Assembly (NCBI GenBank): GCA_031459875.1 | Contig: JAVKHQ010000005.1 | Coordinates: forward strand, 32,001 to 96,000 | DNA: 64,000 bases | Direction: 5' to 3' | Source: Candidatus Fervidifonticultor sextus | GTDB lineage: Bacteria > Sysuimicrobiota > Sysuimicrobiia > Sysuimicrobiales > Humicultoraceae | Shown: positions 25,759-64,000 of the stretch, one piece after another | How positions within the stretch are numbered: the first letter of the stretch is position 1 | How the letters are laid out: every line of letters begins with the position of its first letter | Position numbers and translations under genes: made by a program | The notes under the pieces: generated by a model | Told to the model about the DNA's origin: nothing | Seen by the model: the letters and a program-made list of their open reading frames with translations, nothing else | The model's database searches: none

Positions 25759-26274
25759 CTACGGCGCCGACATGCGCACGGGTACCGAGATGGCCACCGC
25801 TCCCGCCCGCTCGAAGTGCAGCGTCACGGCGAGCCGCTCCCCCTCTTTGAGGTCGCGCTTGAGTCCCAGCAGCATGATGTGGAGCCCACCCGGACGCAGC
25901 TGCGCCCGTCCGCGAGCAGGGACCACGATGGCCGGCACCTTGTGCATGCGACTCATGCCGCCCTCCATGCGCGTCTCATGGAGTTCCACCGCGGCGGCGA
26001 CCCCGGCGTCGGCGCGCAACAGCCGGTCAGCCTGCGAGCCGGTGTTGTGAATGACCATGTAGATCGCCGAGGCGCCAGGTCCCATCTCCGTGCCTTTCCC
26101 ATGGACACCGGCGGGTGCCGCGACGCCCGGCCGTGCCCAGGCCTTCTCGATCCTGATCGATGACGCAGGCGACGCGGCATCGCCCGAGATGGTGGCGGCT
26201 CCGATAAACACGGCAGCGGCAACGAGGGGCGCACCCGAGAGCCACAGGTGCCTCATCTGACGTGACAGGTACAT
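25759..26274 (-). CDS. Copper chaperone PCu(A)C, copy 1
   Basis: Signal peptide, IEKAWAR, SAIYMVIHN, ELHETRMEGGMSRM...GLHIML; SD AAGGAG before ATG 26274. Confidence 0.93.
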   Translation of the reverse strand: MYLSRQMRHLWLSGAPLVAAAVFIGAATISGDAASPASSIRIEKAWARPGVAAPAGVHGKGTEMGPGASAIYMVIHNTGSQADRLLRADAGVAAAVELHETRMEGGMSRMHKVPAIVVPARGRAQLRPGGLHIMLLGLKRDLKEGERLAVTLHFERAGAVAISVPVRMSAP

Positions 26275-26328
26275 CTCTGGATCACTCCTTTGCCAATCGG
26301 TCGCGACGCGAAGTCGGGCGTGTTGCAT

Positions 26329-26913
26329 CTAGTGCCTGAGCAGCTGACGGACGTCGTGTGCCACGTCGGCCGCGGTGGCCTCGTGGCTCACATTCAGACG
26401 CCAGCGTCCCTCCCGGTCGATGACGGGGACGTTCGTCGAGTGCGCTATGAGGTACCCCGCTGCGCTGTTGCGTACCGGGACCTTCTGGAACGCGGCGCCG
26501 AAGAATCGGTAGGTCGCGGCCAACAGATGCGGGGGGCCTGTCAGACCTACGAACTCGGGGCTGAACAGACGGAGGTACCGGTCGAGGAACGCCGGGGTGT
26601 CAACCTCGGGGTCGAGCGTGATGAACACGAAGCGGACTCGCGCGGCGTCCGTCCCCAGTATCTTGGCGACGTCCCGGAACATCCCCAGGGTGAGCGGACA
26701 GACGTCCGGGCACCTGGTGTAGCCAAAGAAGACCAGGACGACGCGCCCCCGTTGCTCGGCGAGGTTGAACGGCCGCCCGTGCTGGTCGCTCAGCACGAGC
26801 CTCGGGACCGGGCGCGCAGGGTCGAGTTCGCGGGCTCGGAAGCTTGGGCGGTGGCACGCGGAGAGGAGCAGCACGGCCAAGCCGCTGGCGATCCATCTGA
26901 TCCATCGGGCCAT
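26329..26913 (-). CDS. SCO family copper chaperone lipoprotein, copy 1
   Basis: Lipobox LLSAC, FFGYTRCPDVCP, DPEVDT, IAHS; SD GGGAGG before ATG 26913. Confidence 0.94.
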   Translation of the reverse strand: MARWIRWIASGLAVLLLSACHRPSFRARELDPARPVPRLVLSDQHGRPFNLAEQRGRVVLVFFGYTRCPDVCPLTLGMFRDVAKILGTDAARVRFVFITLDPEVDTPAFLDRYLRLFSPEFVGLTGPPHLLAATYRFFGAAFQKVPVRNSAAGYLIAHSTNVPVIDREGRWRLNVSHEATAADVAHDVRQLLRH

Positions 26914-27008
26914 AACTAGCCTCCCGCGAAAGGTGTCTACCACGACGCCGCACCGCAACACGCCGGGAGTCGACGGCGTGGAGTGGCGGGCCGCAGTGGT
27001 GAGTCGGA

Positions 27009-27524
27009 TTAGGCTGGGCGGTGGGCTCGAGGCGGAGGGTCCGGAACGGGGAGGGGGATGGGCATGAGGCCCGGCGAGACCGGGCGGGCGACCCGTTCGG
27101 TCGGCGGTGGCGCTCCCGGCATCACTGTCGCTGGCGCCGTGGCGACGGCCAGGCCCGAGACGCTGAGGACCTGCGCGCCATGGGCGGTCCCGGGAAGGAC
27201 GGACACGACACGCGGCAGTTCAGAAATTCGTCGGCTGCCGTGCGGGGGCCACGCCGCGCTCTTCCCGTTCTCACCATGATGTCCGGGGGATCCGCGCTGC
27301 CGGTCGTGGCCGTGGCGACGGTGGTGGGCGAGCGCGTCGGCGCGCTGCGCAGGCGTACCGCCGATCACCACGTGCAGGTGGTACGGGTCGCGCTCCACCG
27401 CCTGCGTGTCGGCGACCGGGACGATCAGTCGCAAGACCATCGCCGGCAACGCAACCGCGGCCACAACCAGGAACGGACCCGGACGGCTTGAGCGATCTGC
27501 CGGCGCCGCGCGACATGGGAACAT
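27009..27524 (-). CDS. His-rich putative leader peptide, paralog 1 (HxHxVIGGTP ... VPDPPPR)
   Basis: Hydrophobic segment, then ERDPYHLHVVIGGTPAQRADALAHHRRHGH, PRVVSV and C-terminal VPDPPPRAHRPA; homologous to 54063.. and 56381..; start uncertain. Confidence 0.75.
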   Translation of the reverse strand: MFPCRAAPADRSSRPGPFLVVAAVALPAMVLRLIVPVADTQAVERDPYHLHVVIGGTPAQRADALAHHRRHGHDRQRGSPGHHGENGKSAAWPPHGSRRISELPRVVSVLPGTAHGAQVLSVSGLAVATAPATVMPGAPPPTERVARPVSPGLMPIPLPVPDPPPRAHRPA

Positions 27525-49915: not shown

Positions 49916-50299
49916 TCAGGGGACCACCCGGAGCGTCGCCTGCATCCCGGCTTCCCGGTGCCCGGGGATGCTGCAGTACACCACGTAGGCTCCCGGCGCC
50001 AACCGGGCTTTCACCTGCACGGTCTTGCCGGCAGGGAAGGGTTTGGCCTCCGCGACAATCTTCTTCGCCGCATTCTCGACGACAAAGTCGTGCTCGACGG
50101 CTCCGGCGTTCCGCACAGTGAATGTGACCTCGCCGGCCTTCGCCAGCAGGTCCCTGGGTTCGTAGACGAACTCCCGGGCGACCACGGTCACCGACAGGGA
50201 GGGCGAGGCGGGCGGCGGTGCCGGAGCCGCCGATGGCGTGTGTGCCGCGGTCATCCCCAGGATCGTCAGCGCCATGCCAACCCGGCGTACGATACGCAT
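49916..50299 (-). CDS. Small secreted type-1 blue copper protein (cupredoxin)
   Basis: Signal peptide; NAGAVEHDF and YCSIPGHREAGM (H, C, H, M ligands). Confidence 0.9.
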   Translation of the reverse strand: MRIVRRVGMALTILGMTAAHTPSAAPAPPPASPSLSVTVVAREFVYEPRDLLAKAGEVTFTVRNAGAVEHDFVVENAAKKIVAEAKPFPAGKTVQVKARLAPGAYVVYCSIPGHREAGMQATLRVVP

Positions 50300-50328
50300 G
50301 CTGAACCCCTCCGATCTGGACCGCGCCG

Positions 50329-51849
50329 TCAGTGCGCCGGCCGCGGCTTGATGACGAGGACCCCGTTGCCACCCCAGGCGTCCGGCCCCAGGTGGACGTC
50401 CCCCGCCTTCCGCGGGGGAGAGACGGATAGGTCGACCACCGTGAGTACCGGCGCGTACTTGTTGGTCACGTAGGCCAAAAACCCGCCGCCCTGCTTGAAG
50501 CCGTAGGCCACGCCGTGGGCGCCCTTGTACGCCGGCACTTCGCTGACGACCCGAATCTTCGATGGATCGTCGTAGTCGACCGCGATCACGCTGGCGTTGG
50601 CGGTCCCGGTGTTGGCCACGACGACGTAGCGGCCGTCCGGGCTGAACGGCGACTGAATGGGCACGGCGCCGACCCGCACGATCTTGACCACCTTGGGGTT
50701 CTTCGGATCGCGCAGGTCCTGGAAGATCAGGCGGCCCTGGAGGAGCTTGTCGTGGGTCAACAACACGGTGGTGGTGACCGCGTAGCGCTTGTTGGGCGAG
50801 ATCGCCGCGTACAGAGGCAGGTTGGCGCCGAATGCCTTCCCGTCGAGATCGGTCACCTTCGACAGGTCCACCGTGGTCAGCACCTTCTCCGCGTCCAGGT
50901 CGATGATCGACATCTGCCCCGAGAGCGCGTTCGCGACGACCATGAGCTTGCCGTCGGGCGAGATCCAGCCGCCGTGCGGTCCGAGGGGCACCTCGATGTA
51001 GCGCACCGGGACCTGGGCCGCCGGTACGGCGGGATCCACCGCCTTGACGAGATCGAGCACGGCAATCCGGTTCGCCGCGTTGATGGTCACCACGACCTTG
51101 CCCTGGGGCGTGGTGTGGGTGTGCGCGGGGGACTCGCCGACCGGGATGCGGTTCTTGACGATGCGCCGGGTCCGGGCGTCGATGATGGTCAGGTAGTTCT
51201 GATGCCAGTTGGTCTGGACGACGTAGCGCTCGTCCCAGGAGACCATGGCGTTGTGCGGGTTGTTGAAGTCGCCGTCGATGACCGCCTTCACCTTCATCGT
51301 GGCGGCATCCACCACCGTGACGGTGCCCGGCGCCTCGCGGTTGGGTCGGGTCTGGAACTGCGTGTCCACCCACACCTCGCCTCGGCCTCGCACGCGCGGT
51401 GGCACCAGGCCGGTGGGGCTGGCCGGCGGCCACGGCTTGATGAACTGCGGCAGGGGGTTCGCGCCGACCGCGATCTGCCCGTCCATGTAGGGATGGATGG
51501 CGCAGACGTAGACGTAGACCCCCGGCTTGGTGAACTGCTGGCGCGCCGTGCCCTTGCGGCCCACGATGGTGATGGTCTTCGCCGGTTCGTCGAAGCCGGT
51601 GAGGAAGGTGATGGTGTGGAGCGTCCGGGCATCAGAGAACGACCAGACGACCTCGTCGCCCGGCTCCACGCGCAGCGTCTGTGGGAAGAACCACGGCGCG
51701 AACTCGCTGACGACGACGGCGTTCTTTGGCAGGGCGGGCGGTGGCGCGCCGCCCGGGGCCTCGGGCGCGGAGCGCGCGATCCCGGCCGGCCCGGCGATCA
51801 CCGCGGCCGCGATGGCGAACACCAGCAGGCTCCTGCTCAGCGTCGGCAT
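50329..51849 (-). CDS. Secreted cupredoxin plus His-rich YVTN-type beta-propeller protein
   Basis: Signal peptide; HTITF and YVCAIHPYMDG; propeller blades with NPHN, PAHTHT, GPHGG, SPDGK, SPDGR, GAHGV, YVTN. Confidence 0.8.
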   Translation of the reverse strand: MPTLSRSLLVFAIAAAVIAGPAGIARSAPEAPGGAPPPALPKNAVVVSEFAPWFFPQTLRVEPGDEVVWSFSDARTLHTITFLTGFDEPAKTITIVGRKGTARQQFTKPGVYVYVCAIHPYMDGQIAVGANPLPQFIKPWPPASPTGLVPPRVRGRGEVWVDTQFQTRPNREAPGTVTVVDAATMKVKAVIDGDFNNPHNAMVSWDERYVVQTNWHQNYLTIIDARTRRIVKNRIPVGESPAHTHTTPQGKVVVTINAANRIAVLDLVKAVDPAVPAAQVPVRYIEVPLGPHGGWISPDGKLMVVANALSGQMSIIDLDAEKVLTTVDLSKVTDLDGKAFGANLPLYAAISPNKRYAVTTTVLLTHDKLLQGRLIFQDLRDPKNPKVVKIVRVGAVPIQSPFSPDGRYVVVANTGTANASVIAVDYDDPSKIRVVSEVPAYKGAHGVAYGFKQGGGFLAYVTNKYAPVLTVVDLSVSPPRKAGDVHLGPDAWGGNGVLVIKPRPAH

Positions 51850-51915
51850 GACGACACCCCCGTTCGTCAGGTGATCGTGCGGTCTGACAGCGTGCACTCG
51901 GACCTCTTGCATGGC

Positions 51916-52587
51916 TCATCTCGCCGCCTGGACGAACGTCCTCCATGTGCGCGCCGCGCCTGCGGCGGAGGCCGGCGCGTGGTCGGGACAGTCGATCCGC
52001 AGGGCGCGGTCGCCGAAGGCGGCGTCCACGAACGCACAGTGATGCGGGCGGGCGGGATCGGCGTGCACGTGCGGCCGAAAGTACCGGCAGGTGACGCACA
52101 TCCGGCTCGGGGCGATCTGCCCAGACTCCTGGAGGGCGCGGATCACCTTCACCAGGGCGCGCAGCAGGGCGGCCTGCTCGGTTACCCCGAGCGTGTCGAC
52201 CGCAGCGTGCACGGCTTCGCCCCAGCTCAACGCCCGACCCGCTTCGCGACGACCCGCGGGTGTGAGGACAATGAGCCGGCCACGGCCGTCGCCACCGACG
52301 GCGTGCTTGGCGACAAGCCCTTTCCGCGCCAGGGTGGTGACCGCCTGGCTCGCGCTCGCCCTGGTGACGCCCAGCGCGGCCGCGACGGCGGAGAGGCGCT
52401 GGCCACCGGGATGGCGGCGCAACATGGTGAGGATCAGCCCCTGCGTCGGCGTGAGGCCGCGTGGCCCGGCGCCACGCCACGACGCCTGCCGCAGCGCCAG
52501 AGCGATCCTGCTCAGGCCGGCGGTGACGCGTTGCCGCAGGGGCTCGCCGTCGACCTCAACCCGGGTGAACGCCGACCTGGAGACCAT
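51916..52587 (-). CDS. MarR family regulator with C-terminal 4-Cys motif
   Basis: GLTPTQGLIL, GVTRASASQAVTTLARKGLV, DGRGRLIVLTPAG; RMCVTCRYF..HHCAF..IDCPDH; SD AGGAG before ATG 52587. Confidence 0.88.
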   Translation of the reverse strand: MVSRSAFTRVEVDGEPLRQRVTAGLSRIALALRQASWRGAGPRGLTPTQGLILTMLRRHPGGQRLSAVAAALGVTRASASQAVTTLARKGLVAKHAVGGDGRGRLIVLTPAGRREAGRALSWGEAVHAAVDTLGVTEQAALLRALVKVIRALQESGQIAPSRMCVTCRYFRPHVHADPARPHHCAFVDAAFGDRALRIDCPDHAPASAAGAARTWRTFVQAAR

Positions 52588-52837
52588 GTTGGTTAAGTCT
52601 CCTAACGACTCGTTGCCTCCCGGGTTCGACACAGAGGTCGAGGTTCCTGCACGCCTCCGACGGACCGCGGAGGCACGCCAACCTTCGGGCCAGTGGACGC
52701 CCGCCAAGAGGGGGCCGCCACGGGCGCCGGCACCGGGGAGCATGATGTCGCTCTCCGGGACAGGGCCGTGGGTGATCCCGCGGGCGCGATTCCTCGGTTG
52801 GTCGGCGGGTGCGGGCCCGGCGCCGTCCGGCCGAAGG

Positions 52838-53347
52838 TCAGGGCGCCGCCATTCGCACCGGCACCCGGACCGCCACCGCCCCGGCCTGCTCGAAGTGCAG
52901 CGTCGCTGTGAACCGATCCCCCTCCCGAAGGTCGCGCTTGAGGCCAAGCAGCATGATGTGGAGGCCGCTTGGCCGCAGCGTCACCCGGCCGCCCGCGGGC
53001 ACCACAATAGCCGGCAGCTTGTGCATGCGACTCATGCCGCCCTCCATGCGCGTCTCGTGGAGCTCCACGGCGGCGGCAACGTCGGTCTCGGCACGCACCA
53101 GACGATCACCCCTCGGTCCGGTGTTGTGGATGGTCATGTAGATCGCCGACGTGCCGGGGCCCATGGCCATGGTGGTCCCGTGGGCACCGGCGGGAGCCGC
53201 GATGCCTGGCCGCGCCTAGGCGTCCTCGATGCGGATAGGCGAGGCCGGCGGCGCCGCTTCGCTGGCAGCGATGGCGGCCATGAACACCACTGCGGTGAAG
53301 AGGGCCGTGCCTCGCAGCCACGAGATTCTCAAGCACATCAAGTCCAT
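52838..53347 (-). pseudogene. Copper chaperone PCu(A)C, copy 2, interrupted by an in-frame TAG
   Basis: Signal peptide, then IRIEDA-[TAG 53218-53216]-ARPG where copy 1 has IEKA-W-ARPG; ELHETRMEGGMSRM...GLHIML intact. Confidence 0.85.
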
Positions 53348-53396
53348 ACTCATCACTCCTTTCCAGCCCGCACCAATGCCAAGTCGGGCGTCGAGC

Positions 53397-53972
53397 CTAG
53401 TGCCGCAACAGCTGCCGGATGTCGTGTACCAGGTCGTCCGCGGTGGCCTCGTGGCTCAGATTCAGACGCCAGCGGCCCTGCCGGTCGATGACGGCGATGT
53501 TCGCCGAGTGCGCCACGAGGTACCCCGCCGCGCTCTTGGGCACCGGGACCTTCTCGAACGCCGCGCCGAAGAATCGGTACGTGGTGGTCAGTGCGTCCGG
53601 GGGGCCCGCCAGGCCCACGAACTCCGGATGGAACAGCCGCAGGTACCGGTCGAGGAACGCCGGCGTGTCGATTTCCTGGTCCACCGTGACGAATACGAAG
53701 CGAACCCGTGCGGCATCCGCCCCGAGCCTCTCGGCGACCTGGCGGAAGACCCCGAGTACGAGGGGGCAGACATCCGGGCACCGGGTGTACCCGAAGAAGA
53801 TCAGGACGACCCGACCCCGCTGCCCGGCCAGGTTGAACGGGTGCCCATGTTGGTCGGTGAGCGTGAGCGCCGGCACCGGACGGGGAGGATCGAGCACGCG
53901 GCCCCGGAAGGTCGGGCGCTGGCAGGCTGAGACCAGCAGCACCAACAGGCCGACGGCGATCCATCTGGACAT
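53397..53972 (-). CDS. SCO family copper chaperone lipoprotein, copy 2
   Basis: Lipobox LVSAC, FFGYTRCPDVCP, VAHS; near-identical to copy 1 (e.g. DTPAFLDRYLRLF, FFGAAF). Confidence 0.94.
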   Translation of the reverse strand: MSRWIAVGLLVLLVSACQRPTFRGRVLDPPRPVPALTLTDQHGHPFNLAGQRGRVVLIFFGYTRCPDVCPLVLGVFRQVAERLGADAARVRFVFVTVDQEIDTPAFLDRYLRLFHPEFVGLAGPPDALTTTYRFFGAAFEKVPVPKSAAGYLVAHSANIAVIDRQGRWRLNLSHEATADDLVHDIRQLLRH

Positions 53973-54062
53973 GGGTGACCTCCCTCGAAAAGCGTTCAGC
54001 GCGGCACACGTCACGGCGTCCCCGCCGATGGGGCGGAGCGCGGGCCGCAGTGACCTCGGTGA

Positions 54063-54581
54063 CTAGGCGAGAGGGTCTGGTCGGGGCGGGGGATCCGGGA
54101 CGGGAATGGCGACCCGGGCGACGCGCGGCGGGGCCAGACCTGCGATCTGTCCGGTGGCCCGGGGGGCGGGGGGCCCCGCAGGCGCCGCCACCGTTGCGAC
54201 CGACAGGCCGGTCGTGCTCAGGACCATCGCGCCCGAGGCAGTCCCGGGAAGGACCGACACGACGCGCGGGACTTGGGGGTCGCCCTGGGCCATTCGTTGG
54301 GTCTGCCCCCCGCCCGTCCAGTGTCGTCCCGGATGTCCGGCGGAGCCGTGCGGTCTGTCGTGGTCGTGGTGACGGTGGTGGGCGAGTGCTTCAGCGCGCT
54401 GCGCGGGGGTGCCGCCGATGACGAGATGCAGGTGGTAGGGATCGCGCTCCACCGCCTGCGTGTTGGCGATGGGCAGGATCAGCCGCGCGATGGTCACCAG
54501 CAACAGGCCCGTGCCCGCAGCCTGGCGTGGCGACGAGCGATCCCAGCGGGCGACCAATGTCGCGCGAGGCACGAGCATCAT
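54063..54581 (-). CDS. His-rich putative leader peptide, paralog 2
   Basis: Hydrophobic segment, ERDPYHLHLVIGGTPAQRAEALAHHRHHDH, PRVVSV, C-terminal VPDPPPRPDPLA. Confidence 0.78.
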   Translation of the reverse strand: MMLVPRATLVARWDRSSPRQAAGTGLLLVTIARLILPIANTQAVERDPYHLHLVIGGTPAQRAEALAHHRHHDHDRPHGSAGHPGRHWTGGGQTQRMAQGDPQVPRVVSVLPGTASGAMVLSTTGLSVATVAAPAGPPAPRATGQIAGLAPPRVARVAIPVPDPPPRPDPLA

Positions 54582-54594
54582 GCTGTACCCGCTC

Positions 54595-54624
54595 ATTATA
54601 GTCGGTCGCCGCACCAGCGTGCAA
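54595..54624 (-). promoter_or_regulatory. Sigma70-type promoter TTGCAC-N18-TATAAT for leader-SCO-PCuAC cassette 2
   Basis: Minus strand -35 at 54624-54619, -10 at 54600-54595; ATG 13 nt downstream. Confidence 0.7.
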
Positions 54625-54710
54625 CGCACAGAGGGGAGGAGAGGGGCGGACGCACCCGGGGAAGTCACGTCCCGTCGCCGGGAGAGATCGCGGCAGGTCG
54701 CGTGAACTCG

Positions 54711-55625
54711 TTAGCGCGTCTTCAGGTAGCGGAGAAGCCCCAGCGCGCTCAGCCGCGTGGACATGATCGTCTCGAACCGGGCCACGCGGTCTGGCCCGTC
54801 GAGCCGGGCGGCTTCGACCGCCATCACGTGGCGCATCCGGCGCGCGATCGCGTCTTCATCAGCGCCGTCCTCCAGGGCCACGCGGACCAGTTCCACCGCC
54901 GCGTGCAGGCGCTGCTGCAACTGCGCCAGCAGCTCCTCGACCCAGGTGTGCGCGCCGAAGTGCGTCAGCAGGAGCCGCCGCGCTCCAAGCCCCTGCAGGC
55001 GCCCGATGGTGGCATCCCACGCCGGGACGTCGAGTTCGGGGGGTGGGGTCGGGGGGCGGACGTAGCGGGATCCCGGCAGCGCCACGCCGGCCGCGTCCCC
55101 GGTGAAGAGGTCCCCGGAGGCGCGATCGAAGTAGACGACGTGATGACGGGCGTGGCCGGGGGTATCGAAGACGGCCAGCCGACGCGACCCCAGCAACACC
55201 TCCGCCCCCTCGCCGATGACGCGGATCCGCTCGTGGGGCACCGGGGCCACCTCGCCGAAGAGCCGCTCCAGGTCCGCGCCGTACAGCCGCCGGGCGCTGG
55301 CCATCAGCCGCGAGGGATCCGCCAGGTGGGGCGCGCCCACCGGGTGCACGTAGACCTCCAGATGCGGGAACCGACGCACGAGGACGCCGGTGGCGCCCGC
55401 ATGGTCCAGGTGAATGTGGGTCACGGCCAGGGCCTGGAGGTCTTCGGGCTCCACCCCCGCGGCCCGCACGCTCTCCAGGAGGGTCTCCACGGTAGACGCC
55501 GGCCCGGTCTCGATCAGGGCCGGCCGGTCGCCCGTCAGCAGGTAGGCGCCGATGGCCTGCGGGGTCCCTTCGTAGTCGGTGTCAATCAGAACGAGATCGT
55601 CGGCCAGGCGTTCGATGCGCGGCAT
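54711..55625 (-). CDS. MBL-fold metallo-hydrolase
   Basis: THIHLDHAGA, TPGHARHH, FTGDAAG, THFG. Confidence 0.92.
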   Translation of the reverse strand: MPRIERLADDLVLIDTDYEGTPQAIGAYLLTGDRPALIETGPASTVETLLESVRAAGVEPEDLQALAVTHIHLDHAGATGVLVRRFPHLEVYVHPVGAPHLADPSRLMASARRLYGADLERLFGEVAPVPHERIRVIGEGAEVLLGSRRLAVFDTPGHARHHVVYFDRASGDLFTGDAAGVALPGSRYVRPPTPPPELDVPAWDATIGRLQGLGARRLLLTHFGAHTWVEELLAQLQQRLHAAVELVRVALEDGADEDAIARRMRHVMAVEAARLDGPDRVARFETIMSTRLSALGLLRYLKTR

Positions 55626-55726
55626 GGGTCGTCCCCCGGTGAGCGTCCGGCATCACAATAACACAGCCGGATGTGGTATGCTCACCTGCGAGATTGCCAC
55701 GCGAGCCTCAGGTGAGGGGTTGCGGC

Positions 55727-56377
55727 ATGTCACCAGGCGGCAAGGCTACCCGGGAGGCGAAGCGACAGCGCCGTGAGGCGGCGCTCGCGGCCCGGCGCGA
55801 AGAGCAGCGTCGGCTCCAGGCCCGGCGGCGACGGCGGGCGCTGGCCGTCTACGGGGGCATCGCCTTGATCGTGGTGGCCGGCGTGGGGTTGCTGACGCTC
55901 TCGGCGCTCCGCCCTCAGTCCAGCATCTTGGGTGCCATCGGCGGCTTCGGGAAGCCGTCTGGCCTGGAGGGGGTCCAGGTGTTTGCGGACCAGGGCGCGG
56001 CCCACATCACCCTGGGCCAGGCGCACCCTCCGTACAACTCCAATCCGCCCACCTCGGGATGGCACACTCCCTTCACCGCCCCCTGGGGAGTGCACCGCAC
56101 GTCGATCGCGGACGAGATCATCGTCCACAACCTGGAGCACGGCGGCATCTGGATTTCATACAGGGACGCATCCGACACGGCGCTGGTGGAGAGGCTGGAA
56201 GCCCTGGTGTCCCGCTACCGCTCCAAGGTGATCCTGACGCCGCGGTCCAATAACGACAGCCGGATCGCCGTGGCCGCCTGGACGCGCCTGCTGAAACTCG
56301 ACGAGTACGACGAGCGGAAGATCGTGGCCTTCATCAACGCCTTCAAGAACAAGGGACCGGAGATGGTCCCTGACTGA
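55727..56377 (+). CDS. DUF3105 domain membrane-anchored protein
   Basis: Basic N-terminus plus TM; YNSNPPTSGWH, VHNLEHGGIWISY, AAWTRLL, GPE. Confidence 0.85.
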   Translation: MSPGGKATREAKRQRREAALAARREEQRRLQARRRRRALAVYGGIALIVVAGVGLLTLSALRPQSSILGAIGGFGKPSGLEGVQVFADQGAAHITLGQAHPPYNSNPPTSGWHTPFTAPWGVHRTSIADEIIVHNLEHGGIWISYRDASDTALVERLEALVSRYRSKVILTPRSNNDSRIAVAAWTRLLKLDEYDERKIVAFINAFKNKGPEMVPD

Positions 56378-56380
56378 GCG

Positions 56381-56860
56381 GTGGAGGACCGGCGGCTGAT
56401 GGAGGCTGCACGTTGCGCCAGGGCGGCGGCCGTGGTCACGCGCCCGGTCCGAACGTCTCTGCTCCCCGTGTTCCTGGTCATCGTCCTTCTTGGTGCTTTC
56501 GATCCGGGTGCGGGGGAGCGGGGTCCTTCGCACGCACACATCGTAATCGGTGGCACCCCGGACGAGCAGGCGCGAGCCCTCGCTGCCCATTTGCGGGGCG
56601 CGCACTCGTCGGCCACCTCCCACGCCTGGCATGTGCTCTTCCGGGCCTCCGACGAGGCGACAGACCACCCCCACGTGATCTCCATCAGCACGGGTGCGGT
56701 CGGTGCCTCCGTCCTCGGAGTCGGCGACGGGACCATGGTGGCCGCGCCCGCCAGCCGGGTGCCCCGCGCACCGCTGTCCGGCCGGGTTGTGCCCCTGCAG
56801 TCCGCGGCGCCGGCCGAAGCCGATCGGACCGTCCCTGATCCGCCTCCTCGCCTCACCTGA
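56381..56860 (+). CDS. His-containing putative leader peptide, paralog 3
   Basis: Hydrophobic segment, ERGPSHAHIVIGGTPDEQARALAAHLRGAH, PHVISI, C-terminal VPDPPPRLT. Confidence 0.75.
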   Translation: MEDRRLMEAARCARAAAVVTRPVRTSLLPVFLVIVLLGAFDPGAGERGPSHAHIVIGGTPDEQARALAAHLRGAHSSATSHAWHVLFRASDEATDHPHVISISTGAVGASVLGVGDGTMVAAPASRVPRAPLSGRVVPLQSAAPAEADRTVPDPPPRLT

Positions 56861-56961
56861 ACCGTCCGGCTACACACATGGCACGCTGGCGGACGGGCAT
56901 CGCCCCCGGAGGTCGTGGTCCCGCCTGCGGGTCGATGCCCAGATCATGGGAGGTGGGCACT

Positions 56962-57396
56962 GTGAGAAGGCAGCTCCTTGTGCTGGCCCTGTGCGTCCCC
57001 CTGACCCTGGGCGTCATCGCGCCAGCCGTTCTCGGTCACCAGACGAAGGTGGTGGGCGGCAAGTACCGGGTAATCGTGGGGTTTGTCCGGGAGCCCGCCT
57101 TCACCGATGAGCGCAACGGCCTGGACCTGATCGTGCGCCGGGTTGAAGACAATGCCCCCGTGGAGCACCTCGAACGCAGCCTCTCGGCCGAACTGATCGC
57201 CCCAGGAGGCCAGGGCAGGCGGGCGCTGCGGCTTCGGCCGCAGTTCGGCCGGCCCGGCTACTACACCGACGACTTCATCCTGACCCGTCCGGGTGTCTAC
57301 CAGATCCGCGTGTGGGGCGTCATCGCTGACGTGCGCTTCGACGAGACGTTTGAGTCCCATGAGGTCAGGCCGCTCAGTGAGTTGCGGTTTCCGTAG
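56962..57396 (+). CDS. Secreted hypothetical protein (Ig/YtkA-like), probable N-terminal His after cleavage
   Basis: GTG after GGGAGG; signal peptide ending VLG-HQ; VGFVREPAF, PGYYTDDFILTRPGVY. Confidence 0.72.
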   Translation: MRRQLLVLALCVPLTLGVIAPAVLGHQTKVVGGKYRVIVGFVREPAFTDERNGLDLIVRRVEDNAPVEHLERSLSAELIAPGGQGRRALRLRPQFGRPGYYTDDFILTRPGVYQIRVWGVIADVRFDETFESHEVRPLSELRFP

Positions 57397-57397
57397 C

Positions 57398-57856
57398 ATG
57401 CGGGGATCGTTTCCCGAGACTGTCCTGGTCGGCGCCGCCCTGGCCCTCCTGGGGGCCGGGGCGGCTGCCGCCCACGCCTACCTCAGGGCCGCGGAGCCGG
57501 CCGAGGACAGCACGGTGGCGGTCGCCCCCAGCGAGGTTCGGCTTGTGTTCAGCGAACCCATCGAGGTCCGGTTCAGTACCTTCAAGGTCTATCGGGTGCC
57601 CGCTGATCCGGGGTGGGATCGGCGTCGCCTCAACGCGGCTGCAGGCGCCCTGGTCTCGGAGGTCCTTCGGCGTCGCGGTGACGAAGCCGACCGGGCGGAT
57701 GCCGGCCTGGCGACGGCCGCACGTACGACCACCACCGTGACGCTACGCCTGCGTCCCCATCTGGCTCCCGGCGCCTACGCGGTGATGTGGCGGGTGCTGT
57801 CGATCGACACGCATGTCACCCAGGGCTTCTACGTGTTTCGGATCAGACCGAACTGA
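57398..57856 (+). CDS. copC: Copper resistance protein CopC
   Basis: AAA-HAYL (mature His1), VRLVFSEPIE, PGAYAVMWRVLSIDTHVTQG. Confidence 0.9.
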   Translation: MRGSFPETVLVGAALALLGAGAAAAHAYLRAAEPAEDSTVAVAPSEVRLVFSEPIEVRFSTFKVYRVPADPGWDRRRLNAAAGALVSEVLRRRGDEADRADAGLATAARTTTTVTLRLRPHLAPGAYAVMWRVLSIDTHVTQGFYVFRIRPN

Positions 57857-57877
57857 AGGGACGCGTCACCCGATCTC

Positions 57878-59581
57878 ATGGACGTCCTCGCCAGGACCCT
57901 TTCCTACCTCGGCGCGACCCTGTTGATTGGTGCAGGGATCTTCGCCTTCTGGATCGGCCCCGAGATGGCCCGCAGCGCGGCGCGTGGGCGGATCCGCCTC
58001 GGCGCGCTGGCGGGAGTCTGCCTGCTGCTGGTGGGGACCGCACTGGGGGTGATCCGGGGACTCCTCCAGGCGCTGGGCGAACTGGGTCCGGCCATGGTAC
58101 CGGCCTACCTTCTCGGGACCCGTCACGGCAACGCGGCCGCCGCCCGGATCGTGCTCGCCGTCCTGCTCGGGGTCATGGCGCCGGGCCGCGGCGGCCGACT
58201 CAGCAGGCCCGTCTTTCTGGGGCTCGCCGCCGGCCTGCTCGCGACTTTCAGCCTGACCAGCCACGCCGCCGGCCTCGGTCGGGTCTTCCCGATCCTGGCG
58301 GACCTGGTCCACCTTTCCGGCGCCGCCGTGTGGGCCGGCGTCGTGCTCTACCTGGCATGGGCTCCAGTCTGGGTGCCCAGCCTGCCGCAGGGCGCCCCCG
58401 GAGATTCTCTGAGCCAGGCCGTGCGGCAGACCTCCGCGATCGGACTGGCCTGCGTCCTCCTGCTCGTTGCGACCGGCGCCTACGCGGCCGCCCTGCACCT
58501 CTGGGGCCCCGTGGCGCTCTCGGCCACCCCGTACGGCCGGACCCTCGCGGGCAAACTCGCGGCCATCGCCCTGCTGCTGGCAATCGCTGCGGTGAACCGT
58601 TGGGTGCTCACTCCTGGTCTTGGGCGGCCCGGATTCCTCGGGGCGACTGGCCGCCTGCTGAAGGTCGAGTCGCTGGTTCTGGCCGCCGTCTTGTCCCTGA
58701 CTGCCCTGCTCACCACGCGCCCGCTGCCCGAGCCGCCGGCCTCCGTGGAGGGCGTCGTGACCATCAATGAGGTGGCTGGCCCCTGGCTGGTGCGGGGGAG
58801 CCTGGCTCCGGCGATTCCCGACGGGCTCACCCTTGAGTTGACGGTCCGCCGCGCTGGCGGCGCCCTCCCGGTGGGCCCGATGTCCGTGGAAGCCGTGATG
58901 ACCATGCAGGGGCATCCGATGCCGCCGGTGGTCATCCGGCCGACGGCCACCGGTCCGGGAAGTTTCCGCGCCGCTGTCTCGCTGCCGATGGCTGGCGCGT
59001 GGGACCTCGCTATCGTCCTGCCGGGCGCCGTCCTCCGTGTTCCCGTCATGGCTCGCAGCGGTCCGGGGGGCGGCTCAGGGTGGGCTCCAGTGCTGCCAGG
59101 TCTCCTGCTGGCGGTCGCCGCCTCGGTCGTTGCGGGTGCCATGCTCGACCGGGCAGGCCTCCACACGCAGACAGGCCGGCTGGCCGCCCTCACAGGAGGC
59201 GCCCTGCTGGCGGTCGGCCTGACCTTCGCCGTCCGCGCCGCAGCCCCCGCCACCTCGCCGGGCGGGATCCCTGACCGGCAGAATCCCATCGCCCCGACGG
59301 CGGAGTCGCTGGCCGCCGGAGAACGCCTCTACCGGCAGCATTGCCAGGCCTGCCACGGGCTCACCGGAGCCGGCGACGGTCCGGCCGCCGCAGCGCTCCG
59401 CCCGCCGCCGGCGGACCTGCGGGTGCACATGGCGGCGGGGCACACCGACGGCCAGCTCTTCCACTGGATCAGCGAGGGCATGCCCGGGACCGCCATGCCA
59501 GCCTTCAAGAATATCCTCTCCGAGGAGGACCGCTGGCATGTGTTGAACTTCATCAAATCGTTCGCCCTCAGCGATCGGTAA
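57878..59581 (+). CDS. CopD-family membrane protein fused to a YtkA-like domain and cytochrome c
   Basis: SLTSHAA, DLVHLSGAAVWAG, TPYGRTLAGKL; MTMQGHPM..LPMAGAW; NPIAPT, CQACHG, GMPGTAMPAF. Confidence 0.88.
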   Translation: MDVLARTLSYLGATLLIGAGIFAFWIGPEMARSAARGRIRLGALAGVCLLLVGTALGVIRGLLQALGELGPAMVPAYLLGTRHGNAAAARIVLAVLLGVMAPGRGGRLSRPVFLGLAAGLLATFSLTSHAAGLGRVFPILADLVHLSGAAVWAGVVLYLAWAPVWVPSLPQGAPGDSLSQAVRQTSAIGLACVLLLVATGAYAAALHLWGPVALSATPYGRTLAGKLAAIALLLAIAAVNRWVLTPGLGRPGFLGATGRLLKVESLVLAAVLSLTALLTTRPLPEPPASVEGVVTINEVAGPWLVRGSLAPAIPDGLTLELTVRRAGGALPVGPMSVEAVMTMQGHPMPPVVIRPTATGPGSFRAAVSLPMAGAWDLAIVLPGAVLRVPVMARSGPGGGSGWAPVLPGLLLAVAASVVAGAMLDRAGLHTQTGRLAALTGGALLAVGLTFAVRAAAPATSPGGIPDRQNPIAPTAESLAAGERLYRQHCQACHGLTGAGDGPAAAALRPPPADLRVHMAAGHTDGQLFHWISEGMPGTAMPAFKNILSEEDRWHVLNFIKSFALSDR

Positions 59582-59586
59582 CCTGA

Positions 59587-60621
59587 ATGCGTGCTTCCCG
59601 CCGTCGCCATCTCCATCGGGCCGCCCTGCTGGCAAGTCTGCTGGCTGCCTTTTCGGGTTGCCAGCAGGCGCCGCCGGCCCACGGGCCGGCGCTCCCGCTG
59701 GTCAGGCCTGTACCGGACGCTCCGGGCAGGCTGCTCTACACGAAACTGCGGCCCGATGCCCGGAGCGCGTTTATGACCTTCGAGCCGGCCACCGGGGCGC
59801 TCGCGGAGCTGGTCGTGTTCCCGCCGGGTGTGATCGCGGGGATGCCCGCCGCCTCACCCGATGGGGCCCAGGTGGCCTACAGCGCCTACCGACCCGGAAA
59901 GGATCCGACGGATCCCGGCGGCACCGATCTCTACGTGATGGATGCCACTGGCGCGCGCCAGCACCTCGTGGCCGCGCATCCGCAGGCGGGTGCCTCGCTG
60001 ACCGAGCCGGCGTGGGCGCCAGACGGTCGAACCCTGTATGTCACCCACGTCGCCCGCGACGGCGCCATGCGGATCGAACGGATCTCGCTGAGCGATCGGC
60101 GCCGACAGACCGTCATCGTCAACGCCTCGTACCCGACCGTCGCCCCTGACGGACGTGTGGGGTTCATCCGCATGGATCCGAGCCTCCGCATCCAAGAACT
60201 CTGGGTGGCACAGGCCGACGGGCGCGGGGCCCGTCGTATCGTGGCCGGCTCGCCGTTTGCCGGGATGGCCTTCCCCAGGTTTGCACCCTCAGCCGATCTC
60301 ATCGTGTTTGCGGCCATCGGTGGTCCCGTCGGCTCGCCTTCGCCCCGATCCGAGCGTCCGGTGCCTCTCTGGCAGCGTGGACGGGCTGCCTTCGCCCACG
60401 CCGTCCCCTGGGACCTCTGGATCGTCGCTAGCGACGGGACGGGCCTGAGGCAGGTGACCAACCTGAAGGAGGACTACCCCGTTCCGGTCTGGTCCGCCGA
60501 CGGGCACTGGATCGCCTTCACGGGCGAGTTCGGCCTCTACCTCCTCCGCCCCGCGGAGAAGCGGGTTGTGCGGGTCCACGATGAAGGGGCTGGGAGCGGC
60601 CTGGCGTGGCTGTCGCGCTAG
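59587..60621 (+). CDS. TolB-like (PD40) beta-propeller lipoprotein
   Basis: Lipobox FSGC; PAASPDG, PAWAPDG, PTVAPDG, PRFAPS, PVWSADG repeats. Confidence 0.85.
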   Translation: MRASRRRHLHRAALLASLLAAFSGCQQAPPAHGPALPLVRPVPDAPGRLLYTKLRPDARSAFMTFEPATGALAELVVFPPGVIAGMPAASPDGAQVAYSAYRPGKDPTDPGGTDLYVMDATGARQHLVAAHPQAGASLTEPAWAPDGRTLYVTHVARDGAMRIERISLSDRRRQTVIVNASYPTVAPDGRVGFIRMDPSLRIQELWVAQADGRGARRIVAGSPFAGMAFPRFAPSADLIVFAAIGGPVGSPSPRSERPVPLWQRGRAAFAHAVPWDLWIVASDGTGLRQVTNLKEDYPVPVWSADGHWIAFTGEFGLYLLRPAEKRVVRVHDEGAGSGLAWLSR

Positions 60622-60676
60622 GCGCCACCAGGCGTCCGCCCCCGGGCCGCGCCGGCCTTGCGCCGCCTGGGTTGCA

Positions 60677-60685
60677 TGCTATAAT
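60677..60685 (+). promoter_or_regulatory. Extended -10 (TGCTATAAT) for rplY-pth
   Basis: Perfect TGn-TATAAT about 55 nt upstream of the rplY ATG. Confidence 0.7.
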
Positions 60686-60738
60686 GAACGCCGTTCGGGC
60701 CCCGATCCTCGGGGCTCGACTGTTGGAGGGAACCGCAC

Positions 60739-61476
60739 ATGGAACGGGTGACACTGAAGGCTCGGCCGCGTGAGGCACTCGGTAAAGGCGCCGCGCGCAG
60801 TCTTCGGCGGCAGGGGCTCGTCCCGGCGGTCGTCTACGGCCGCGGCCGGGACCCTCAGGCGGTCGCCGTCGATGCGAAGGCGCTGTCGGAGGCCCTGCAC
60901 ACCCACGCCGGTATGAACGTCCTGATCGATCTGGAGGTCCCAGACGGCGACGGCGCGGAGCCGACCACGGTCGTCGTCAAGGAGACCCAGCGGGACATCT
61001 TTCGGCATCACCTGATCCATGTGGACTTCCACGCCATCTCCCTGACCGAGACCATCGAGATGCATGTGCCGGTGGTGCTGAAGGGGACCGCCAGGGGGGT
61101 GGCCGAGGGCGGGGTGCTGGAGCACCACCTGCGCGAGGTCCTGGTCAAGTGTCTGCCGACGCAGATCCCGGACCAGCTCGAACTGGATGTCACCGAGTTG
61201 CTGGTCGGCCGGTCCCTGCACGCCAGCGATCTGGTGGTCCCGGAAGGCGTCACGCTGCTTACGCCGCCCGATGAGGTGATCGTCACCGTCGTCGCGCCGC
61301 GGGTGCACGAGGAGGCGGCGCCCGCTGCGGCGGCCCCGGCGGAGGCCGCGGCGGCGGTCGAAAGCGCGCCGGCGCCCGAAGGGGCCGGGACCACGACGGC
61401 AGCCGGGAAGCCCCGGGCCGCCGACGCGGCGGCCGCGGCCGGCAAGCCGCGGGCAGCCGAAAGCGACAGGTCCTGA
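60739..61476 (+). CDS. rplY: 50S ribosomal protein L25/Ctc
   Basis: GKGAARSLRRQGLVPAVVYG, HVDFH, GGVLEH, CLPTQIP; Ala-rich tail with two AAGKPRAA repeats. Confidence 0.96.
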   Translation: MERVTLKARPREALGKGAARSLRRQGLVPAVVYGRGRDPQAVAVDAKALSEALHTHAGMNVLIDLEVPDGDGAEPTTVVVKETQRDIFRHHLIHVDFHAISLTETIEMHVPVVLKGTARGVAEGGVLEHHLREVLVKCLPTQIPDQLELDVTELLVGRSLHASDLVVPEGVTLLTPPDEVIVTVVAPRVHEEAAPAAAAPAEAAAAVESAPAPEGAGTTTAAGKPRAADAAAAAGKPRAAESDRS

Positions 61477-61551
61477 TCGCGCGCCGGGGCCACCGCCCCC
61501 CTGCGCCGCGCACCGGGTGCTCGCCCGAACGCGGATGGATGTCTTTTCGCC

Positions 61552-62151
61552 ATGCGGCTTATCGTGGGGCTGGGCAACCCCGGACGGCGCTACCGCGGCA
61601 CCCGGCACAACATCGGGTGGGAGGTCCTGGACCGCCTTGCCCGCACGCACGGCATTGCGATTGACGCCGAGGACGGCTGGGCCGAGGTCGGCCGGGGCAC
61701 CATCGGCGGCCGCCGGGTGCTGCTGGCCCGGCCGCAGACCTACGTGAACGTCAGCGGCACGGCCGTGGCCGACCTCACCCGGCGCCATCGGGTCGCGCCA
61801 TCGGACCTGCTTGTGATCGTCGACGACCTGGATCTCCCGGTGGGGTCGGTGCGCGTGCGGGAGAAGGGCGGCCACGGCGGCCACAACGGCCTCCGCTCCA
61901 TCATCGAGGCGCTCGGCACCACGGCGTTCCCCCGCATCCGGATCGGCATCGGCAGGCCGCCGGAAGGCGTCGACCCCGCCGACTACGTGCTCGAACGACC
62001 GTCGGCCGACGAGCGGGCGCTCCTGGACGATGCCGTGGCCCGCGCCGCAGAGGGCGCGACGCTGTGGGTCACGGACGGCGTGCAGGCCGCCATGCGTCGC
62101 TGTCACATCCGGCGGCCTCAGGACGCTGTAGGGTCACAGGCACCGCTATAA
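61552..62151 (+). CDS. pth: Peptidyl-tRNA hydrolase
   Basis: IVGLGNPG, TRHNIG, TYVNVSG, DDLDL, GGHNGLRSI, RIRIGIGRP. Confidence 0.97.
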   Translation: MRLIVGLGNPGRRYRGTRHNIGWEVLDRLARTHGIAIDAEDGWAEVGRGTIGGRRVLLARPQTYVNVSGTAVADLTRRHRVAPSDLLVIVDDLDLPVGSVRVREKGGHGGHNGLRSIIEALGTTAFPRIRIGIGRPPEGVDPADYVLERPSADERALLDDAVARAAEGATLWVTDGVQAAMRRCHIRRPQDAVGSQAPL

Positions 62152-62172
62152 TGGCGGGATGGAGGCATCGTC

Positions 62173-62751
<579 letters not shown>

Positions 62752-62784
62752 TCCTGGAGGCCCCCGCGTCAGGGCGCCGCGGCG

Positions 62785-64000
62785 TTGGCTGACGTCGGCC
62801 GCCGCGGCCTCTGGTCGGCGTTTGCCACCCTGCGCCACCGCAACTTCCGGCTGCTGTGGACCGGCCTGCTGGTCTCGCAGACCGGGTCGTGGATGCAGTT
62901 CATCGCGCTCGGTTACCTGGTCGACCAGCTCACGAAGGCACCGATCTATCTCGGTCTGTTGGGGATCAGCCAGGCCGTCCCGCGCCTGCTGTTTGCGCTG
63001 ATCGGCGGGGCGGCCGCCGACCGCTTCGACCGGCGCCGGGTGCTGCTGGCGACCAACCTGCTCCTCATGGGCTCGGCCATCCTGCTCTGGCTGCTGGCGT
63101 ACACCGATCGCATTCAGGTCTGGCACGTCCTGCTCATCGGGGCGGTCAACTCGACGACCCAATCCTTCGACAATCCGTCGCGGCAGTCGATGGTCCCCCT
63201 CCTGGTCGGCGACCGCGAGCTGATGCCGGCCCTCAGCCTGAACACCATGGCTATGAACGGCTCGGGGATCTTCGGCCCGTCCATCGGCGGCGTGGTGATC
63301 GCCCTGGTGGGGGTCGAGGGGTGCTTCTTTGTCAACGCCCTCTCATACGTCGCGGTGGTGGCGGCCCTGCTGCGGATGGAGATCCCGCAGCAGGCCGCCG
63401 GGGGACGCCAGTCCATCGGCGCCGACATCCGTGAGGGCCTACGGCTCCTCGGCCAGAACCGCCACCTGCTGGCGATGCTGGGCGTCGTGGGCGTGCTGAG
63501 CTTCTTCGGCCGTCCCTACATCCGACTGATGCCCGCCGTGGCGCGGGAGGTGCTCGGAGTCGGCCCCACCGGCCTGGGCGTCCTGCAGGCCGCGCCGTCG
63601 GTCGGCACGATCCTGGCCGTCTTCGTCGTCGGCATCTTCGGGGAGACGGCCGGCAGGGGCCGGCTGCTGCTGGGTGCGGCGATGACCACGGGGCTCGTGG
63701 TGGCGCTCTTCGGCGCGTCCACCTGGTTTGGTGTCTCGGTCGGTCTGTTGGTCCTCGCGGGCATCTCGCAGGCGCTGGCCATGGCCGCAGGCAACACGAT
63801 CCTGCAGACCAGCGTCCGCCCGGATCAGCGCGGACGGATGATGGGCGTCTGGAGCATGGTGAACTTCGGGATGTTCGCGCTGGGCACGCTGCCGCTGGGC
63901 GCCCTGGCCGGCGCGGTCGGGGTGGGCCCGGCGCTGACGCTGGGCGGCGTCGTGGTGGTCGTGGTGGTCGGAATCCTGGCGCTGGCCGTGCCGCGGATCG
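62785..64000 (+). CDS. MFS transporter (partial, runs off the window end)
   Basis: Open frame from TTG 62785: AFATLRHRNFRLLWTGLLVSQTGSWMQ, GGAAADRFDRRRVL, DQRGRMMG; no stop before 64000. Confidence 0.88.
   Translation, partial: MADVGRRGLWSAFATLRHRNFRLLWTGLLVSQTGSWMQFIALGYLVDQLTKAPIYLGLLGISQAVPRLLFALIGGAAADRFDRRRVLLATNLLLMGSAILLWLLAYTDRIQVWHVLLIGAVNSTTQSFDNPSRQSMVPLLVGDRELMPALSLNTMAMNGSGIFGPSIGGVVIALVGVEGCFFVNALSYVAVVAALLRMEIPQQAAGGRQSIGADIREGLRLLGQNRHLLAMLGVVGVLSFFGRPYIRLMPAVAREVLGVGPTGLGVLQAAPSVGTILAVFVVGIFGETAGRGRLLLGAAMTTGLVVALFGASTWFGVSVGLLVLAGISQALAMAAGNTILQTSVRPDQRGRMMGVWSMVNFGMFALGTLPLGALAGAVGVGPALTLGGVVVVVVVGILALAVPRI

Follow-up and report, generated by a model that had tools for sequence, protein, structure and literature searches.

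How can three proline codons at the very end of one gene matter to the gene that follows it? The question is raised by a locus in a 64,000-nucleotide (nt) stretch of the genome of Candidatus Fervidifonticultor sextus (GenBank assembly GCA_031459875.1, contig JAVKHQ010000005.1, positions 32,001 to 96,000), which we call the window and whose own numbering we use throughout. There, an open reading frame (ORF) of 153 amino acids (aa), here called paralog C, ends in Pro-Pro-Pro (PPP) codons and a very short tail, and a second gene begins on the same strand at GTG 56962, after 101 intergenic nt. A preliminary description of the DNA had taken this ORF for the third of several leader peptides and had proposed that its PPP codons pair with the second gene's Shine-Dalgarno (SD) sequence, so that a ribosome paused on PPP would free that SD. 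Here, we find that the supposed leader is no leader; it is the tail of a small, predicted-exported protein with a histidine motif. Across the family to which this protein belongs, pairing of the downstream SD with the ORF end is strongly enriched in predicted folds. We regard as evenly poised the reading that these genes are cis switches resembling CutF of Rhodobacter capsulatus, in which a C-terminal polyproline pause keeps the ORF end off the downstream SD and tunes the translation of a copper chaperone.

What kind of protein ends in this way? PPP makes up residues 148-150 of a 153-aa ORF that is conserved as protein, which removes the leader peptide from the earlier account, and paralog C is identical to a database protein (P0002). 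The window holds three members of the family, A, B, and C, that share an N-terminal hydrophobic segment, an invariant block P-x-H-x-H-V/I-I-G-G-T...A-L-A-x-H, a second block R-V-x-S-V...G..V-L, and a C-terminal V-P-D-P-P-P-R followed by two residues in C and five in A and B. Three histidines (H45, H47, and H64, the last 17 residues after H47) are invariant in alignments of 14 and of 22 sequences, and DPPPR is invariant in 14/14 aligned sequences. A word-indexed search found 13 relatives, and a full hidden Markov model search of 1.84 billion cluster representatives found 157 clusters at an expectation value (E) <=1e-3, with soil and hot-spring metagenomes among the sources; within the phylum Sysuimicrobiota, 23 of 94 genomes carry the family. 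Counted over 158 representatives, PPP lies inside the last 12 residues in 143 and PPPR in 123, the tail after PPP being exactly three residues long in 77 members and four in 29. The hydrophobic 15-mer near the N terminus is present in 88 of the 90 complete members, with a positive net charge before it in 88%. Family proteins are 139-186 aa long (5th-95th percentile; median 153.5 aa), and 100-126 aa separate the His motif from PPP, so that by the time a ribosome decodes PPP, the His motif would be clear of it by a wide margin. No match for the family proteins came from Pfam or NCBIfam; two members matched DUF5134 weakly (E 0.0032). In the ESM Atlas, the nearest clusters are unnamed, and one CzcI cluster at 0.93, with 112 shared features, is a lead only. 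One homologous locus stands apart: the profile matched L049 (G066:C46, match 12803-13135) only to position 123, its protein ending ...VVCQLTMME without a PPPR tail; L049 may be truncated or frameshifted, and a complete second copy, L034, is present in its genome.

These same observations bear on another kind of explanation: transcription attenuation, as at mgtP or his/trp, by a leader peptide that would sense the supply of Pro-tRNA or of elongation factor P (EF-P) and switch between terminator and antiterminator. Consecutive Pro codons ahead of a structured intergenic region are all that recommend it. An ORF of 153 aa conserved as protein does not belong to that class, no terminator-like hairpin with a U-tract occurs on the + strand between 56860 and 56962 (the 56895..56940 hairpin has no U-tract after it), and an Rfam scan of 50000-64000 at E<=1 gave no match in the region. 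We disfavor an attenuator and consider it very improbable.

What lies downstream is as consistent as the motifs. Family genes precede, on the same strand and after 36-219 nt, a predicted-exported copper-handling gene: SCO1, CopC, CopD, or a secreted beta-sandwich family that we call His-1, an assignment that holds for the three window paralogs and for all loci with readable downstream DNA. Of 16 downstream proteins scanned, 2 were SCO1, 2 were CopC, and 12 had no family above the cut-off; those 12 align with one another. The 144-aa protein encoded after paralog C (56962-57396) is of this last sort, with no Pfam or NCBIfam match. Its AlphaFold2 model is a confident beta-sandwich (predicted local distance difference test, pLDDT, 89.2), its predicted mature N terminus is an invariant His, and its best match in the Protein Data Bank by Foldseek is the Helicobacter pylori copper-resistance protein CrdA (E 9.5e-5), with the copper proteins FtrA/P19 lower in the same list. 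The His-1 family is possibly a new histidine-brace-type copper chaperone. Its members share the invariant His, predicted as first mature residue, in ...A-H-E-x-R/K-x-V-G..., and they come in short forms of ~144 aa (the window protein, L003, L036, L038, L039, and L046) and long forms of ~200-220 aa with a C-terminal hydrophobic anchor (L027, L029, L031, L033, L034, L044, and L045).

Does the RNA between such gene pairs do anything that RNA between other genes does not? As a measure, we took a partition-function fold, whose standard window opens 36 nt ahead of the stop and closes 18 nt beyond the start, and asked what share of SD pairing falls on the ORF end (-33 to +9 relative to the stop). For comparison, we used 442 same-strand gene pairs of the same genome with an intergenic distance of 40-170 nt and a strong SD, controls whose gene calls are crude, based on GC content at third codon positions, and drawn from one genome. 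Among the controls, the median was 0.016 and the 90th percentile 0.56, and of the first 17 family loci, 16 had values of 0.33-0.91. The signal held when the method was changed. In a wider fold with 120 nt of context upstream, the 90th percentile was 0.26 for the controls, and 8/14 loci exceeded it (family vs. controls, Mann-Whitney p = 6e-6, n = 14). Folded at 65 C, 21 of 27 non-redundant loci lay above the control 90th percentile. As to the strand that the SD finds, over the 27 loci, it was the PPP codons in 13, the tail/stop region in 11, and codons ahead of PPP in 1, with no partner in the other 2. The tail/stop class includes all three window paralogs, with values of 0.83 for paralog B (tail) and 0.74 for paralog A (tail or stop). 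In other words, the conserved Pro triplet adjoins, or is part of, RNA that, as modeled, can cover the ribosome-binding site (RBS) of a copper-chaperone gene.

The closest known system is CutF, with the CutF-like/DUF2946 group that includes Xanthomonas CopL. CutF of the R. capsulatus cutFOG operon is an exported protein of 118 aa with a CxxxC motif and the C terminus P109EPEGPPPRL118; it works only in cis, and a stem-loop shields the cutO SD (PMC9973294; 10.1101/2025.02.05.636593; PMC8456105). Changing PPP to PAP abolished Cu-dependent CutO production, and the stall is relieved by EF-P and prolonged by copper on the exported part (same sources). The CutF protein does not accumulate. CutF-like proteins were defined there as small (<150 aa), with a signal peptide, PP in the last 15 residues, and a metal gene downstream on the same strand; PCuAC-type chaperones are among their frequent neighbors, and His-only CutF-like clusters beside HupE/UreJ genes are reported in the CutF paper (PMC9973294; 10.1101/2025.02.05.636593; PMC8456105).

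The family and CutF have several features in common. Both are small proteins, exported or predicted to be, whose gene directly precedes a copper-homeostasis gene on the same strand; both have a putative metal-binding motif in the center and, near the stop, a C-terminal PPPR (...PVPDPPPRLT and ...PAPEPPPRLS, for example, vs. ...PEPEGPPPRL in CutF); and both have RNA structure over the downstream SD (here predicted) and an efp gene in the genome. Of the traits that mark CutF-like proteins, we find in the family the C-terminal PP motif, the same-strand downstream metal gene, and a predicted SD-shielding structure. Unlike CutF, the family has a His-only motif (H-x-H...H) in place of CxxxC, is 139-186 aa long rather than 118 (about half of it exceeding the 150-aa filter of the CutF authors), places its predicted anti-SD inside its own last codons rather than in an intergenic stem-loop, and precedes SCO1, CopC, or CrdA-like genes rather than a multicopper oxidase. 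It also comes as three paralogs per genome and from the phylum Sysuimicrobiota, and it lacks similarity to DUF2946 (PF11162) by profile search: PF11162 run over the whole genome gave nothing at the three paralogs and two sub-threshold matches on another contig. Our searches of the literature on DPPPR or EPPPR with copper and on CutF-like or DUF2946 proteins with Sco1 or PCuAC found the family not described; the mBio list of CutF-like proteins lay outside that comparison and may hold distant relatives (PMC9973294). By these computations, the family is probably a new variant of CutF-like translational control, one built on histidine.

A second precedent comes from the RAPP/RGPP arrest peptides, which a recent report places upstream of genes for YcnI-family proteins, PCu(A)C, and TonB receptors; CruR of Bordetella pertussis is among them, and for it, the proposal is that copper relieves the arrest, in contrast to CutF (EMBO J 2025, PMC12992588). 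The present family resembles these peptides in being small proteins with a localization signal, a Pro arrest motif (here a candidate) near the C terminus, and copper-related genes downstream, and it resembles CruR in having copper proposed as the modulator of arrest. Unlike CruR, it has no R-A/G-P-P in the last 15 residues (0/158 members), its motif being [D/E]PPPR. Because the copper effect proposed for CruR is opposite to that in CutF, the response in the present family could run either way.

The general architecture has a longer history. SecM, MifM, and VemP carry an N-terminal export signal and, within a few codons of the stop of their ~95-170-aa ORF, an arrest motif; the end of the ORF supplies the 5' arm of a helix that sequesters the downstream SD. 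The family shares a predicted export signal, a C-terminal candidate arrest motif, and a predicted ORF-end/SD helix. It differs in having copper genes downstream in all loci read, not Sec or YidC components, and in having no sequence similarity to those proteins; its arrest would rest on an EF-P-sensitive polyproline, not on a dedicated tunnel-interacting peptide.

How, then, would the switch run? A ribosome would slow at the Pro-Pro-Pro codons with the N-terminal part of its product already exported. In free mRNA, the last ~30 nt of the ORF would reach over one or two intergenic hairpins and pair with the SD of the gene that follows, the pairing strand being the PPP codons in about half of the family and the tail and stop codons in the window's three copies. 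A ribosome held on PPP (or, more briefly, any terminating one) would occupy or unwind that strand and so free the SD, and translation of the downstream copper gene (SCO1, CopC, or CrdA-like) would therefore scale with the dwell time on PPP. That dwell time would be set by EF-P, which this genome encodes, and by analogy with CutF and CruR, by copper on the exported His motif; we think copper and EF-P likely inputs of the switch. What the analysis shows is the family with its invariant motifs, its neighboring genes, and an excess of predicted ORF-end/SD pairing; that the ribosome stalls, that this alters translation, that copper is the signal, and which way the response runs belong to inference. 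A narrower proposal, in which CCN-CCU-CCN does two jobs at once (Pro-Pro-Pro stall and anti-SD) in His-based nascent-chain copper sensors apart from DUF2946, we put forward tentatively and with more doubt than the switch in general.

The step in which a ribosome frees the SD can be computed. We kept 28 nt around a P-site on Pro2 or Pro3 out of all pairing and recalculated the energy needed to open the SD, and this footprint mask lowered the opening energy in 8/9 loci tested. For homologous loci, the values without and with a ribosome on PPP were 12.3 and 6.6 kcal/mol in L001 (a drop of 5.7), 10.6 and 4.7 in L003 (5.9), 13.8 and 7.4 in L012 (6.4), and 12.7 and 8.5 in L005. In the window, they were 10.2 and 8.5 for paralog A (1.7), 6.1 and 5.3 for paralog B (0.8-1.3), and 11.0 and 8.5 for paralog C (2.5), so that at the locus where the paused-ribosome idea arose, masking acts in the proposed direction and the effect is small.

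What of the locus itself? Much of what the preliminary description had read there is correct as a matter of sequence. The PPP codons CCGCCTCCT do stand at 56840-56848 and GGGAGGTGG at 56948-56956; between them, 9 consecutive pairs are possible, two being G-U; and GGGAGGTGG is the SD of GTG 56962, at a spacing of 6 nt. The stem arms GGGCATCG and CGATGCCC lie at 56895-56902 and 56933-56940, and the hairpin that they close appears in the minimum free energy (MFE) and centroid structures of every window folded; the arms of the CCGTCC/GGACGG stem lie at 56862-67 and 56891-96. The named PPP-SD helix, however, is not the main structure. It is a minor alternative whose pair probability runs from 0.003 to 0.49 depending on the window folded, and in the standard window, the PPP codons take 0.02 of the SD pairing. 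The SD pairs mostly with CGCCUCACCU at 56849-56858, the R-L-T codons and the first base of the stop (share 0.60). Both alternative partners would lie under a ribosome sitting on PPP, and in L001, a 92%-identical ortholog, the exact helix of the earlier account is the MFE structure.

A good deal weighs against the switch, and some of it comes from this same locus. The longest SD-complementary run in the 146 nt upstream is 10, and at least 9 is reached by 26% of 1000 dinucleotide shuffles and by 18% of the 442 control gene pairs, so the 9-bp run is not beyond chance. The whole fold of 56800-56990 is no stabler than its shuffles (z = -0.02). Compared with random synonymous recoding, the codons of paralog C pair no better (p = 0.80), and the match of its ORF end to its own RBS is no closer than to other RBSs of the family (rank 0.88). 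Taken alone, the pairing at the paralog C locus is not significant. In the family at large, 6/27 loci fall under the control 90th percentile at 65 C (L029, L034, and L045 among them), and L015 has no pairing although its relative L006 pairs. Masking did not lower the SD opening energy of L011 (10.0 kcal/mol when free), where the effect is absent or reversed, and the footprint effect is small in all three window paralogs; in copies with a five-residue tail, the anti-SD starts at about +12 nt from the P-site, the edge of a PPP-stalled ribosome. A PPP stretch is normally resolved by EF-P. A scan of 14 family members with hmmscan at E<=10 found no DUF2946 match, and the conserved internal motifs with a small predicted alpha/beta unit would also fit an ordinary functional protein. 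The earlier observation is partly confirmed and its interpretation partly supported: the idea that a ribosome paused on PPP frees the SD stands at the level of the family, where the ORF end around the conserved PPP is predicted to sequester the SD, and fails to stand out at paralog C.

Might all of this pairing be a by-product of composition? CCN codons are complementary to a G-rich SD, the genome is 70% GC, and the downstream genes could simply be translated independently. Runs of 9 bp are common, as we have seen. Bare ORF-end/RBS duplex energies are unremarkable, mid-range among the controls (percentiles 0.05-0.86), and the SDs of the controls are likewise mostly predicted to be paired (median 0.65). 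It is the partner-specific pair probability alone that separates the family from the controls; fold stability, run length, and duplex energy do not. At several loci, paralog C included, random synonymous versions pair nearly as well as the real one. Recoding the last 11 codons at random gave resamples with means of 0.05-0.77, above 0.4 in 10 of 15 loci, and because the resamples pair so well, much of the pairing follows from the peptide and need not have been selected in RNA, which counts against the switch as well.

Set against a by-product, in the full fold the ORF end is the SD's partner far oftener than in controls of identical geometry, and 11/27 loci use tail/stop sequence and not the Pro codons. 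Pairing is also cognate specific: over 27 loci, ORF ends form duplexes with their own RBSs that are 2.1 kcal/mol better than with others (permutation p = 1e-4), and over 15 loci, real codons beat their synonymous resamples (Fisher p = 9e-6). The loci are phylogenetically related, so these p-values and the Mann-Whitney value above are overstated, to the switch's disadvantage. Between L031 and L033, a C-G pair in the helix beside the SD has become U-A, a compensatory change. A natural experiment points the same way. In the Ca. F. octavus ortholog L001, the 144-aa gene is deleted (L001:4432-4612 vs. window 56830-57010 and 57380-57470); what is kept is the ORF end, the intergenic region, the SD, the start, and the first ~13 codons, after which the CopC signal peptide follows. 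As read from the alignment, this is a deletion between two signal-peptide-coding regions with the upstream control region retained after loss of the cargo gene, and the arrangement fits a conserved control module. We judge a compositional by-product improbable.

Codon usage adds to the evidence for selection at the RNA level, which is mixed. The middle Pro codon is CCU (giving CCUCC) in 15/27 loci vs. 13% at 248 genomic PPP sites, and A/T-ending Pro codons make up 40/81 at the family's PPP (27 loci) vs. 21% at the same 248 sites. In the genome as a whole, CCU is rare (7% of Pro codons), but two A/T-ending codons of three are found at 10.5% of the 248 sites, which counts against the pairing at paralog C being more than chance. 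The A/T-ending excess fits either selection for a CCUCC anti-SD or selection for slowly decoded codons.

The stronger competitor is an ordinary copper membrane protein, itself a stable and functional partner of SCO1/CopC-type chaperones, with plain translational coupling and neither a regulated pause nor sensing. PxP[D/E]PPPR would then be a protein-protein or anchoring motif, and ORF-end/SD pairing would do nothing more than tie downstream to upstream translation. Such a protein would account for the conservation of H-x-H-V-I-G-G-T and R-V-x-S-V and for the small folded unit predicted, and the PPP codons vary synonymously around an invariant peptide, which points to selection on protein sequence. 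A terminating ribosome, moreover, opens the SD about as well as one held on PPP (8.5 vs. 8.5 kcal/mol for paralog C and 4.8 vs. 5.3 for paralog B); in the switch, the PPP pause would accordingly prolong an unmasking that each translating ribosome causes briefly. The CutF authors themselves first proposed a protein interaction by the Pro-rich end, before the stalling work.

Why, however, should a protein motif of this sort hold PPP at a fixed three to four residues from the stop in 106/143 members? PPPR-x(1-2)-stop is also the ending of CutF, where stalling and cis action were shown. Most of the AlphaFold2 model of a family protein is disordered or of low confidence (pLDDT 60.2; the C-terminal third is disordered, and the small alpha/beta unit has low confidence), and a purely protein-level motif leaves unexplained both the CCU excess at the middle Pro and the cognate fit with the flanks of the SD. 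We consider plain coupling unlikely, less so than a by-product, and we return to the CutF-like switch as the reading that we favor.

The positions on which these arguments rest are collected in the table. Some details stand beside it. The SD of the 56962 gene has a strength of -14.4 kcal/mol against the anti-SD. The hairpin at 56895..56940 brings the ORF end and the SD together in the folds, and it is nearly identical in the Ca. F. octavus ortholog. A DUF3105 gene (55673-56377) ends 3 nt before GTG 56381 and 21 nt before the preferred ATG of paralog C, so paralog C may be an internal gene of a longer operon and not its first. The CopD-cytochrome c fusion farther downstream has a weak YtkA-like match between its two domains (E 9.4e-4, below the Pfam cut-off).

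Table. Features of the three paralogs and their downstream genes, in window coordinates
Feature	Position	Strand	Basis or remark
189-aa ORF after paralog A's SCO1	25759-26328		no NCBIfam match
Second SCO1 gene, downstream of paralog A	26329-26961		ORF listing; - strand
SD GGGAGG (26925-26920) and ATG (26913-26911) of second SCO1 gene	26911..26925	-	sequence
Paralog A, 171 aa from ATG 27524, ends PVPDPPPRAHRPA-stop	27009..27524	-	tblastn, ORF, alignment
Paralog A PPP codons CCT CCG CCT	27038-27030	-	sequence
SCO1/SenC gene after paralog B	53397-53972	-	Pfam SCO1-SenC 1.6e-35
SD region CGAGGGAGGTC (53987-53977) and ATG (53972-53970) of SCO1/SenC gene	53970..53987	-	sequence, helix listing
Paralog B, 172 aa, ends PVPDPPPRPDPLA-stop	54063..54581	-	ORF; database protein P0001
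Paralog B predicted anti-SD GACCCUCUCG	54077-54068	-	inside five-residue tail
Paralog B PPP codons	54092-54084	-	sequence
Paralog C alternative start	GTG 56381	+	would give 159 aa
GGAGGA upstream of paralog C	11 nt before ATG 56399	+	sequence
Paralog C, predicted exported	56399..56860	+	153-aa ORF, His motif, ends TVPDPPPRLT-stop; stop 56858-56860
H-A-H codons	56531..56539	+	in invariant P-x-H-x-H-(V/I)-(V/I)-I-G-G motif; putative metal site with third His
D-P-P-P-R codons GAT CCG CCT CCT CGC	56837..56851	+	conserved C-terminal polyproline, proposed stall site
R-L-T codons and TGA stop	56849..56860	+	56849-56858 is predicted main anti-SD partner (MFE helices)
First intergenic hairpin	56862..56892	+	MFE of 56861-56990 and larger windows
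Second intergenic hairpin, GGGCAUCG...CGAUGCCC and inner stem	56895..56940	+	MFE and centroid
SD GGGAGGTGG (56948-56956) and start GTG (56962-56964)	56948..56964	+	sequence; signal-peptide-like N terminus begins at GTG
Downstream gene, 144 aa, predicted secreted beta-sandwich	56962..57396	+	ORF; putative controlled gene
CopC	57398-57856	+	Pfam CopC 1.2e-18; follows 144-aa gene
CopD fused to cytochrome c domain	57878-59581	+	Pfam CopD 4.1e-14, Cytochrom_C 5.1e-13

What would it mean if the switch were real? On the narrower proposal, stalling and unmasking would take place at one physical site, and one thermophile would run three switches in parallel, each for a different copper-chaperone operon: two with SCO1 and one with the CrdA-like, CopC, and CopD genes. 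Should polyproline codons have an anti-SD built in, operons under stall control could evolve by this route easily and generally. Copper-dependent translational control through an exported nascent chain that stalls is known for CutF and CruR only, both proteobacterial, and is predicted to be widespread; the present family would add one that has no database model, that carries a His instead of a Cys motif, and that comes from an uncultured thermophilic phylum, and it would place such control before the genes that deliver copper to cytochrome oxidase (SCO1, CopC/CopD). Three natural copies in one genome, differently wired, would allow a comparison of the response with where the anti-SD lies relative to the PPP stall site. 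For those who annotate such genomes, it would be a reason not to dismiss the ORFs of this family as hypothetical membrane proteins.

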